A stretch of 42,476 bases of DNA from Bacteroidota bacterium (GTDB taxonomy: Bacteria; Bacteroidota; Bacteroidia; UKL13-3): the NCBI GenBank assembly GCA_947462865.1, contig CANHRW010000001.1:1-42476 (forward strand), written 5' to 3'. Below the pieces are notes generated by a model. It was not told the origin of the DNA. It saw only the letters and a list, made by a program, of their open reading frames with translations, and ran no database searches. The translations under genes were made by a program, and so were the position numbers. The stretch's first letter is position 1. Every line of letters starts with the position of its first letter. Shown here piece by piece: positions 4,459 through 39,272 of the stretch.

Positions 4459-5415
4459 ATGAAAATTGGTTTTGACATCATGGGGGGAGATTATGCCCCT
4501 AAAGAAGCAATTGCAGGTGCAATACAGGCTCACATAGAATTGGCAGGAACTGCCCGTATCGTATTTTTTGGAGACAAAGAACAAGCCATTTCTCTCATTC
4601 AAGAGCATGGAGCAGATGTGAATGATTTTGACTTTGTTCATACCTCAGAAGTAATTAGCATGGGGGAACATCCTACCAAAGCAATTTCACAAAAGAAAGA
4701 TTCGAGCATTTCTGTTGGTTTCGGCATGTTAGCTCAGAAACAAATAGATGCATTTGTAAGTGCTGGTAACACAGGAGCGATGTTAGTTGGATCTATGTTT
4801 TCAGTGAAGCCAATTGAAGGAGTAATCAGACCAAGTATCACATCTATAGTTCCAAAATTGAACGGAAAATTTGGGGTTGTATTGGATGTAGGTGCAAATG
4901 CTGATTGTAAACCAGATGTTCTTTTCCAATTTGGCATTCTTGGCTCTTTGATGATGAAGCATGTTTATGGAGTTGAAAATCCAAGAGTAGGCTTATTGAG
5001 CATTGGGGAAGAGAAAGAAAAAGGAAATTTAGTAACCATTGCTGCGCATCAAATGATGGCAGAAACAACTGCTTTTAATTTCATAGGCAATGTGGAAGGC
5101 CGAGATTTCTTATCTGACAAAGCCGACGTCATTGTATGTGATGGATTTACTGGAAATGTGGTACTCAAAACTTTAGAATCTGTTTACTATGTCATGAAAA
5201 AACGTGGTGTAGAAGACGATTTTATAAACCGTTTCAACTACGAAAACTATGGTGGAACTCCAATTTTAGGAGTGAATGCCCCAGTTATAATAGGACACGG
5301 CATTTCAAATGCGAAAGCATTCAAAAACATGATACTTTCAGCCAAGGAAGTTCAAAATTCAGACTTGGTTAATATTATTAAAACATCCTTTAAAAGTGTT
5401 GTTCTCCCAGTTTAA
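4459..5415 (+). CDS. plsX: Phosphate acyltransferase PlsX
   Basis: 318 aa. MKIGFDIMGGDYAP start, SAGNTGA motif and GFTGNVVLK motif. Position follows rpmF. Confidence 0.95.
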   Translation: MKIGFDIMGGDYAPKEAIAGAIQAHIELAGTARIVFFGDKEQAISLIQEHGADVNDFDFVHTSEVISMGEHPTKAISQKKDSSISVGFGMLAQKQIDAFVSAGNTGAMLVGSMFSVKPIEGVIRPSITSIVPKLNGKFGVVLDVGANADCKPDVLFQFGILGSLMMKHVYGVENPRVGLLSIGEEKEKGNLVTIAAHQMMAETTAFNFIGNVEGRDFLSDKADVIVCDGFTGNVVLKTLESVYYVMKKRGVEDDFINRFNYENYGGTPILGVNAPVIIGHGISNAKAFKNMILSAKEVQNSDLVNIIKTSFKSVVLPV

Positions 5416-38242: not shown

Positions 38243-38899
38243 TTATGCGTTGTTTTTGGCATGGTCTGCCAAGAATTGAGCCAATCCACTGTCTGTTAAT
38301 GGATGCTTCAATAATGCTAAAATACTGTTCAATGGGCTAGTAATTACATGCGCACCTACCTGAGCAGACTTTACAATATGTACAGGGTTTCTGATAGAAG
38401 CTGCTAGTATTTGTGTTTGATAGCCTTGCACAGCAAATATTTGTGATATTTCTGCAATAAGTTGTATGCCGTCGAATGAAATGTCATCTAAGCGGCCTAC
38501 AAATGGGCTAATGTAGGTAGCACCTGCTTTGGCAGCTAGTATGGCCTGACCAGAACTAAACACCAACGTGCAATTGGTTCTTATGCCTTTAGAAGTTAAA
38601 TATTTAATGGCTTTGATACCATCTTTAATCATCGGAATTTTTACAACTATGTTTTCATGGAGGGCTGCTAATTTTTCGCCTTCGGCAATCATTTCATTGT
38701 AAGTAGTAGCAATTACCTCTGCACTCACATCTCCATCTACAATATTACAGATGTCGACATAGTGTTTCAATACAGCTGCTTCGCCTTTAATACCTTCTTT
38801 TGCCATTAAAGAAGGGTTGGTTGTTACACCATCTAAAATACCTAAGTCGTTTGCTTCTTTAATTTGATCAAGATTTGCTGTATCGATAAAAAATTTCAT
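38243..38899 (-). CDS. fsa: Fructose-6-phosphate aldolase / type 3B transaldolase
   Basis: 218 aa. MKFFIDTANLDQIKEA start, GVTTNPSL and Schiff-base Lys context VVKIPM. Confidence 0.93.
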   Translation of the reverse strand: MKFFIDTANLDQIKEANDLGILDGVTTNPSLMAKEGIKGEAAVLKHYVDICNIVDGDVSAEVIATTYNEMIAEGEKLAALHENIVVKIPMIKDGIKAIKYLTSKGIRTNCTLVFSSGQAILAAKAGATYISPFVGRLDDISFDGIQLIAEISQIFAVQGYQTQILAASIRNPVHIVKSAQVGAHVITSPLNSILALLKHPLTDSGLAQFLADHAKNNA

Positions 38900-38919: not shown

Positions 38920-38927
38920 CAAAGATA
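38920..38927 (-). promoter_or_regulatory. Candidate -7 box (TAtcTTTG on the minus strand) upstream of fsa
   Basis: The plus strand reads CAAAgaTA, 21 nt upstream of the start at 38899. Confidence 0.35.
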
Positions 38928-38971
38928 CTTTTTTGGCAATAAGTCTGAAAATGAAAACAAAAATAAAACGC

Positions 38972-39003
38972 AAAAAAAGTCCGATTGGTTACCCAATCGG
39001 ACT
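38972..39003 (-). terminator. Rho-independent terminator after the 58-aa ORF
   Basis: Perfect 11-bp hairpin AGTCCGATTGG-ttac-CCAATCGGACT. On the minus strand it is followed by 7 T. Confidence 0.8.
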
Positions 39004-39023
39004 TTTAAATATTTGAAATATAA

Positions 39024-39200
39024 TTATTTCTTTTTAAAACCTAGCAATGCAGCTCCTGTAGCCAAAAGACCAATAGCTGCATCAACAGGCACATCTATTG
39101 GGTCTCCACCATTATCTGGTACACCTTGTGCAAATAACTGATTTGCAAAAAGAATACCCAGCATTGTTAAAACAGTTACATACAATTTGATATTTTTCAT
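39024..39200 (-). CDS. 58-aa mini-protein: signal peptide plus PEP-CTERM-like (PID...hydrophobic...KKK) sorting tail
   Basis: Not in the ORF track (below 60 aa). Hand translation gives MKNIKLYVTVLTMLGILFANQLFAQGVPDNGGDPIDVPVDAAIGLLATGAALLGFKKK followed by a stop. It is ATG-initiated, has its own downstream terminator, and lies 72 nt downstream of the 768-aa gene on the same strand. Confidence 0.55.
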   Translation of the reverse strand: MKNIKLYVTVLTMLGILFANQLFAQGVPDNGGDPIDVPVDAAIGLLATGAALLGFKKK

Positions 39201-39272
39201 AATTATTCCTATTATCTACTTTTAAAATTAAACACTCTATATTTTGAATATGATTTAATAACCTACTAATGT

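Follow-up and report, generated by a model that had tools for sequence, protein, structure and literature searches.

Introduction

Work on exosortases has described a Cys/Arg/His triad, tripartite sorting signals and one-to-one 'dedicated' systems (bioRxiv 10.1101/2023.06.07.544157). Here we report on a gene of 58 codons, hereafter the mini-gene, which lies on the minus strand of a 42,476-nucleotide stretch of DNA from a freshwater Bacteroidota bacterium (positions 1 to 42,476 of contig CANHRW010000001.1, assembly GCA_947462865.1; this whole stretch is the window of our analysis). Its product, the mini-protein, is composed of a signal peptide, a short linker and a C-terminal tail which, judging from its relatives, descends from the PID-CTERM family of sorting signals. 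The assembly (1.99 Mb in 253 contigs, 80% complete) encodes a single exosortase, of which the mini-protein is likely a substrate.

The closest described system is formed by PID-CTERM, the exosortase XrtX and the XrtX-associated membrane protein, all three curated in NCBIfam (NF046080, NF046081 and NF046082, respectively). Its tiny proteins share with the mini-protein a signal peptide, a linker of Gly, Asp and Pro, the P-[IVL]-D signature, a Gly/Ala-rich helix and terminal Lys/Arg residues, and in both cases genomes with the tail also have an exosortase of the XrtX/XrtF group and an overlapping gene for a small polytopic membrane protein. They differ in that our tail reads PVD-AA and not PID-GG (12.6 bits against a cut-off of 26), and in that the enzyme is not adjoining, falls in the other clade of the exosortase tree (100/99 support), scores 90 bits where the XrtX model demands 170, and has a partner without a match to NF046082.

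The second system is that of XrtF (TIGR04128) and TIGR04127, known from Flavobacterium johnsoniae (Fjoh_1448/Fjoh_1449), where deletion of xrtF or of its partner reduces surface colonisation, greatly reduces biofilm and abolishes zorb formation, and for which the substrates have been stated to be unknown (PMC10936215). The exosortase that we found on contig 59 resembles the XrtF system in its place in the tree, together with bona fide XrtF, in its neighbourhood of sugar-nucleotide and polysaccharide genes and in the overlapping gene for a membrane protein of about 140 residues that follows it. However, its 86.5 bits fall just short of the cut-off of 90, its partner has no match to TIGR04127, and a LIC_10190-family protein comes next. 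As no substrate has ever been assigned to XrtF, a connection between this enzyme and PID-CTERM does not count as established.

Two more distant cases are instructive. PExPT-CTERM/XrtJ (TIGR04200, a 57-position model) sets a precedent for a protein of about 57 residues consisting of just an export signal and a sorting tail and served by one dedicated enzyme; its signature and enzyme subfamily are different, and one relative of the mini-protein matches the model only weakly (12.9 bits against 40), which makes this an analogy and not a membership. PEP-CTERM/XrtA and PGF-CTERM/ArtA likewise have a tripartite C-terminal signal and a polytopic membrane enzyme with Cys, Arg and His, but these are one-to-many systems acting on large target proteins, and their basic cluster is usually Arg-rich where the mini-protein has Lys. 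ArtA couples the loss of the helix to the attachment of a lipid (bioRxiv 10.1101/2023.06.07.544157).

We consider the mini-gene a further member of the catalogued but unstudied PID-CTERM system, whose domain, enzyme and partner have been curated. Particular to this case are the sub-threshold tail, the unlinked enzyme, and the presence of one XrtF-clade enzyme with one candidate substrate.

Results

The mini-gene is real and under purifying selection

The mini-gene is absent from the annotation supplied with the sequence. It had been picked out in an initial annotation of the window, and its translation is identical to the 58 residues given there; the start does lie 72 nt downstream of the stop codon of a type IX secretion system (T9SS) cargo gene on the same strand. 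A search of a collection of 5.8 billion proteins yielded seven homologs, each exactly 58 residues long and 72-100% identical to the mini-protein. Codon comparison with three orthologs (L009 in genome G011, L005 on a metagenome contig and L010 in G049) gave a ratio of non-synonymous to synonymous substitution rates (dN/dS) of 0.07-0.15, about 0.09. With all seven homologs at 58 residues and a ratio this low, the mini-gene is real and under selection. Between the orthologs synonymous change is saturating, and in the close pairs 12-17 synonymous changes stand against 0-1 non-synonymous ones over residues 25-58; conservation of the frame and the synonymous pattern, two properties that the initial annotation had proposed to check, amount to strong purifying selection. 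The orthologs bear the public name 'hypothetical protein' or none at all, and we attribute the oversight of the mini-gene to its shortness and to a score under the curated PID-CTERM cut-off. The architecture, with lengths of 58-71 residues, is common to many genera and families.

Conservation is unevenly distributed along the protein. The signal-peptide half is the most variable part among the homologs (dN/dS 0.18-0.30) and residues 28-58 are almost invariant. Across genera Q25, D36, P38 and K56 are invariant. Signal peptidase I is predicted from the sequence to cut between A24 and Q25, and Q25, the first residue past this predicted cut and itself invariant, fits the Q-rule of Bacteroidetes signal peptides (PMC5837995, PMC10653852). 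The linker (residues 25-36) is unchanged in close orthologs; across genera it stays acidic and rich in Gly, and D-x-P-x-D still leads into the signature, but nothing more of it is kept.

The tail is PID-CTERM by descent

The initial annotation had suggested that the protein-family models include a PID-CTERM variant. Such a model exists (NF046080, PID_CTERM, NCBIfam) and is the top match of the mini-protein, but with 12.6 bits (13.4 bits in the genome scan) under a curated cut-off of 26 bits. Positions 1-21 of the model align to residues 37-57. This hidden Markov model (HMM) alignment places the P-[IVL]-D signature of the family at P38-V39-D40, and not at P34-I35-D36, which had first been taken for it. 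The general architecture had been read correctly, with VPVD followed by the helix AAIGLLATGAALLGF, by KKK and then by the stop codon.

PVD is present in the window tail, but Ala-Ala stands in place of the family Gly-Gly, and it is this replacement that explains the low score. The syntenic 58-residue ortholog of genome G049 (72% identical), which has DVPIDGA where the window copy has DVPVDAA, reaches 27.8 bits on NF046080, and tiny relatives from other genera reach 33-54 bits. Because the syntenic ortholog and the tiny relatives pass the model, sequence kinship marks the tail as a diverged PID-CTERM member by descent, though under the curated threshold. Full-length matches of the mini-protein to tiny ORFs were obtained in 8 of 17 genera. 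Pfam contains no match for the mini-protein or its relatives, and none of the PEP-CTERM models matches the mini-protein. A library-wide profile search with the ORF-family alignment returned two matches at E <= 0.001, this alignment being too narrow to size the family. NF046080 under-calls a diverged sub-lineage with PVD-AA and PVN-SA tails, seen in this genome and in its closest relatives.

The genome encodes one exosortase, of the XrtF clade

The single exosortase homolog of the genome is found on contig 59 (positions 4512-4991). It passes the general exosortase/archaeosortase signature TIGR04178 (49.2 bits, cut-off 23), misses XrtF (TIGR04128; 86.2-86.5 bits, cut-off 90) by 3.5 bits and does not pass XrtX (NF046081; 90.1 bits, cut-off 170). 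The triad is conserved, with Cys77, Arg118 and His137 invariant. PF09721 (Exosortase_EpsH) has no match anywhere in the genome. A maximum-likelihood tree of 27 exosortases of the same taxonomic family consists of two clades whose split has 100/99 support. The first contains enzymes at 125-171 bits on XrtX; the second contains bona fide XrtF (G039 C36, 135.9 bits on the XrtF model) together with the enzymes of the host genus (g1) and of genera g3 and g8. The exosortase of this genome belongs to the XrtF clade.

Two kinds of cassette accompany these enzymes. The X-type is made of a tiny PID-CTERM gene, XrtX and an overlapping gene for a partner of 122-146 residues. The F-type is made of sugar-biosynthesis genes, the exosortase, a partner of 129-151 residues and a LIC_10190-family protein, with no tiny gene adjacent. 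On contig 59 an ORF for a polytopic membrane protein of 140 residues overlaps the exosortase stop codon, and the LIC_10190-family membrane protein is next. The initial annotation had pointed to xrtF and its partner gene as the loci to look for: one exosortase homolog of the XrtF clade is there, and so is a small overlapping membrane gene, but this one has no match to TIGR04127. As it also lacks a match to NF046082 and any BLASTP similarity to the partners of XrtX cassettes, we treat it as a positional analogue only.

Some further features of these cassettes were noticed. In F-type cassettes (L033-L045), what comes after the XrtF-clade exosortase and its partner is regularly the LIC_10190-family polytopic protein (NF047510, 219 bits; L003:2401-3465, G000:C59). 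In the X-type cassettes of genera g2, g11, g13 and g14 its place is taken by a membrane protein of about 350-380 residues, which had no NCBIfam match in the one scanned (L024). In genome G067, of the same genus as the host, a 1.8-kb contig holds a second, partial exosortase match (G067:C58:1434-1817, 103.6 bits over XrtX positions 42-166), so that at least one member of the genus may carry two exosortases.

Tail and exosortase co-occur

Tail and exosortase co-occur tightly and are often adjacent. Among 101 genomes of the same taxonomic family, with essentially one exosortase homolog each, 72 have tail and enzyme and 19 have neither, leaving four with the enzyme only and six with the tail only (three of these six being at most 85% complete). 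Genera g5, g6, g7 and g15 are without both, as are four genomes (G012, G030, G054, G062) within genera otherwise positive.

We extended the comparison to 121 genomes of the class, each at least 90% complete, counting tail matches at E <= 1e-4. The tail was found in 56 genomes (55 over the cut-off) and an exosortase homolog in 78; all 56 tail-bearing genomes had an exosortase, and none of the 43 enzyme-less genomes had a tail. Nearly all of the tail ORFs are open frames of 63-120 residues. By a hand count of coordinates, 37 of the 56 genomes have a tail ORF on the strand of the exosortase and 39-143 nt upstream of it, and the two genes are unlinked in the other 19, as they are here. Apparent in-frame stops in the XrtX genes of G141, G182 and G216 proved to be their own stop codons, overrun by the HMM match.

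The pairing extends to genomes with XrtF-clade enzymes. G011 (100% complete) and G049 (99%), the nearest relatives with an orthologous mini-gene, each have a single exosortase, of the XrtF clade. Genera g1, g3, g8 and g10 have the XrtF clade only (apart from the partial second match of G067), yet PID-CTERM tails are present in about 36 of their 39 genomes. Elsewhere in the class, the enzymes of G156, G175, G200 and G210 score higher on XrtF than on XrtX and coexist with unlinked PID-CTERM tails. The three strongest XrtF genomes of the class sample (195-224 bits) have no PID_CTERM match at E <= 1e-4. One of them, G153, contains a tiny ORF of the same design at 11 bits (MKIINKIATVFLMLFGILSAFA...PPPPPAPIDGIGLWILIFAAILLGIYVIYKYKLKTKALV). 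In the product of this ORF (L056, G153:C6:146438-146701), which is not linked to xrtF (224 bits), the signal peptide gives way to a linker rich in proline, then to APIDGIG, a helix and, as the tail, KYKLKTK.

In relatives, a tail of this kind is carried by other secreted proteins

In the closest relatives (L005, L006, L007, G011, G049 and the P0007 contig), the cargo gene and the mini-gene are separated by a gene for a secreted low-complexity protein of 186-200 residues. The stop codon of this gene is 2 nt before the mini-gene start or overlaps it, and the protein ends in ...PDDPGDVPVNSAVYILVIAGAYLGFKFKRSLMY, a tail of the same kind. This paralog of about 195-200 residues is without a match in Pfam or NCBIfam, and NF046080 does not pick up its tail. 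Its gene is cleanly deleted in the window, where blastn leaves 40 nt (39233..39272) against about 597 nt in L005, L009, L010, L026 and L027; homology to the relatives resumes 32 nt before the mini-gene ATG.

Other species of the genus encode several proteins of about 190-210 residues ending in ...DNGDDPNDVPLDGGISILGLAAAAYGFRKFKK, one of which passes NF046080 at 38 bits. The presence of the same tail on unrelated secreted proteins of about 190-220 residues indicates, at the level of sequence, that the tail is a transferable sorting tag and not part of a dedicated subunit. In this genome, a regular expression and a custom tail HMM run over 20,705 ORFs of the 80%-complete assembly found no second carrier, so that the scan for further PID-type tails suggested in the initial annotation came back empty.

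The secreted family of about 190-210 residues has features of its own. Its genes (L011, L014, L016, L017 and L018, from G037, G025, G079, G074 and G084, respectively) often form tandem pairs; in the proteins an acidic N-terminal part is combined with a conserved ...(I/F)DYS... motif and, ahead of the helix, with ...APRN(M/I)DAVPDNGD(D/E)PNDVP(L/I)DGG...; besides the tail they are without family assignment.

The mini-gene trails a T9SS cargo gene

The C-terminal domain (CTD) of the 768-residue cargo protein encoded upstream passes both TIGR04183 (30.7 bits, cut-off 23) and PF18962 (36.4 bits, cut-off 27). The gene that precedes the tiny gene in the genus g16 cassettes encodes a homolog of this protein (29-32% identity over about 185 residues, E 1e-13 to 1e-16), also with a T9SS type A domain. 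Moreover, tandem units in which a T9SS type A cargo gene of 1,150-3,700 codons is followed by its own PID-CTERM gene of 59-62 codons occur in G037, G059 and G025, of the host genus, and in G007, of genus g8; scores in these units are 50-63 bits for the cargo CTDs and 34-42 bits for the tiny genes. Not every tiny gene is paired in this way: in genera g2, g11, g13 and g14 the upstream gene appears from its sequence to resemble methionyl-tRNA formyltransferase. The cargo proteins of the tandem units share a pre-CTD module, G(E/K)NRFE(L/I)(I/V)(F/L), which is also seen in the 768-residue protein of the window.

Transcription of the locus

The mini-gene is followed by its own terminator hairpin, which folds at -21.8 kcal/mol (z = -7.2 relative to shuffled sequences) and is kept in the relatives (L005 sequence; blastn alignment). 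The initial annotation had recognised this terminator, which is real, but had set it 3 nt off (38972..39003, as against 38975..39006) and had counted only 11 core pairs of its 14-bp stem. No Rfam family reaches its gathering score at the locus, the weak matches all falling on the terminator hairpin and far below. The 72-nt spacer contains no terminator and no Bacteroidota -7 box (TAnnTTTG), for which reasons we think that the mini-gene is probably co-transcribed with the upstream cargo gene. An own promoter for the mini-gene was considered and rejected: the spacer is devoid of a TAnnTTTG box, and sigma-70-type matches are not above shuffle expectation.

Two Bacteroidota-type -7 boxes, TATCTTTG and TATTTTTG, are present on the minus strand at 38920..38927 and 38958..38965, between the mini-gene terminator and a transaldolase-family gene (38243..38899, minus strand), of which they are probably the promoter.

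Table 1. Features of the mini-gene locus and of related loci (positions are those of the window unless a locus or genome is named)
Feature	Position	Strand	Remarks
58-residue mini-protein gene (MKNIKLYVTVLTMLGILFANQLFAQGVPDNGGDPIDVPVDAAIGLLATGAALLGFKKK)	39024..39200	-	ATG start; TAA stop at 39024-39026; 58 codons
Predicted signal peptide, residues 1-24	39129..39200	-	basic n-region MKNIK, hydrophobic core, c-region QLFA; from sequence
Acidic Gly/Pro/Asp linker, residues 25-36 (QGVPDNGGDPID)	39093..39128	-	short; essentially the whole would-be mature peptide
Diverged PID-CTERM sorting tail, residues 37-58	39027..39092	-	V-P38-V39-D40-A-A, helix AAIGLLATGAALLGF, KKK
Intrinsic terminator, hairpin and U-run	38975..39006	-	14-bp stem, GUAA loop
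Spacer between cargo gene and mini-gene, 72 nt	39201..39272	-	39233-39272 is the site of the ~195-residue paralog gene in relatives
T9SS type A cargo gene, 768 residues	39273..41579	-	habitual upstream partner of the mini-gene
Paralog with PID-CTERM-like tail (...DVPVNSAVYILVIAGAYLGFKFKRSLMY), ~195-200 residues	L005:2692-3279, L009:896-1498, L010:1677-2282		site in window 39233..39272
Tandem-array loci	L048 (G037:C1:255500-272500), L049 (G059:C393), L050 (G007:C6), L051 (G025:C28)		

Discussion

Taken together, we regard it as probable that the mini-protein is a 'cargo-less' PID-CTERM protein and a dedicated substrate of an exosortase-family enzyme, a reading in which we infer both cleavages, the transfer, the acceptor and the role. 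In Bacteroidota, an N-terminal Q is usually cyclised to pyroglutamate. The mini-protein would be exported by Sec and cut by signal peptidase I after A24, baring Q25. What remains, 34 residues, would then be held in the inner membrane by its Gly/Ala-rich C-terminal helix, with KKK facing the cytoplasm. The XrtF-clade exosortase of contig 59 would recognise D-x-P-x-D-V-P-V-D and cut there, and the helix would be removed. By analogy with archaeosortase A, the resulting acidic peptide of 13-16 residues might be transferred to a lipid or glycan acceptor. Taken through these steps, the mini-protein would end up as pyroGlu-GVPDNGGDPIDV(P)(V)(D) carrying an adduct at its C-terminus, and it would probably work with the neighbouring family of T9SS surface proteins.

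Several points weigh against this reading. The window copy misses the curated PID-CTERM cut-off (12.6 against 26 bits), and the contig-59 enzyme is under both curated cut-offs (86.5/90 on XrtF and 90.1/170 on XrtX). This enzyme is unlinked to the mini-gene, being on contig 59 and not on contig 1, no tiny gene lies upstream of it, and its 140-residue partner resembles neither curated partner family nor the partners of XrtX cassettes. With an assembly that is 80% complete, a second exosortase or more substrates could be missing. The genomes in which we observed the co-occurrence are related to each other, and the counts overstate their statistical independence. In the literature covered, we found no publication on PID-CTERM or on XrtX as an exosortase, nor any biochemical report of PID-CTERM cleavage. 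Finally, the most conserved part of the mini-protein is the helix due for discarding, which also fits a protein left intact in the membrane.

This last point leads to the alternative that deserves most attention, unlikely as we hold it to be, namely that the mini-protein, once rid of its signal peptide, stays in the inner membrane as a 34-residue single-pass micro-protein and serves the exosortase, or the handling of the neighbouring T9SS cargo, as a subunit, a regulator or a specificity factor. Besides the strong conservation of signature and helix, the helix has small residues spaced at G44, G49 and G54, which is typical of helix packing, and the 'mature' part is too short and too variable across genera for a functional cargo. 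Gene coupling is tight as well: the tiny gene runs up to or into the start of the exosortase gene, or else stands behind cargo genes. A subunit of this kind is, however, difficult to reconcile with the occurrence of an identical kind of tail on the unrelated secreted proteins of about 190-220 residues of the genus, and the tripartite design at the extreme C-terminus matches that of known cleaved signals.

If the tail is cleaved, which enzyme does it? It could be processed by a canonical XrtX missing from the 80%-complete assembly and not by the XrtF-clade enzyme of contig 59. The adjacency of tiny gene and enzyme is mostly with XrtX-clade enzymes, G067 of the same genus has its second partial exosortase match (103.6 bits), and the three strongest XrtF genomes of the class sample are without a PID_CTERM match at E <= 1e-4. 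Yet G011 and G049, at 100% and 99% completeness, each make do with one exosortase of the XrtF clade; genera g1, g3, g8 and g10, essentially XrtF-clade only, have tails in about 36 of 39 genomes; and XrtF-type enzymes coexist with unlinked tails elsewhere in the class (G156, G175, G200, G210). We find this alternative very unlikely. It is hardly credible, and already disfavoured, that the ORF arose by chance in a 3' untranslated region or is what a once larger PID-CTERM protein has left behind in its decay: its absence from the supplied annotation, its place under the NF046080 threshold and the deletion of the neighbouring tail-bearing gene in this genome could suggest so, but dN/dS is about 0.09 with saturating synonymous change, all homologs have 58 residues, the 58-71-residue architecture recurs in many genera and families, and the gene has its own conserved terminator.

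A dedicated exosortase substrate remains our preferred reading, and it bears on biology beyond this genome. The PID-CTERM/exosortase system is widespread, about 45% of the sampled class genomes having a match over the cut-off. With one enzyme and one candidate substrate, the present genome offers a very clean hypothesis on the question of the XrtF substrate. The recurrent pairing of a tiny gene with a T9SS cargo family hints at cross-talk of two surface-sorting pathways. One could go as far as to propose that XrtF-clade exosortases have their natural substrates in tiny PID-CTERM-type peptides and that these are functionally tied to the T9SS proteins that they trail, a generalisation that we consider distinctly unlikely. 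If it were true, the anchoring, maturation or organisation of the cargo family on the cell surface could depend on an acidic peptide that the exosortase has processed and that is linked to a lipid or glycan, and two sorting systems of the Bacteroidota that have been treated as separate would become connected.

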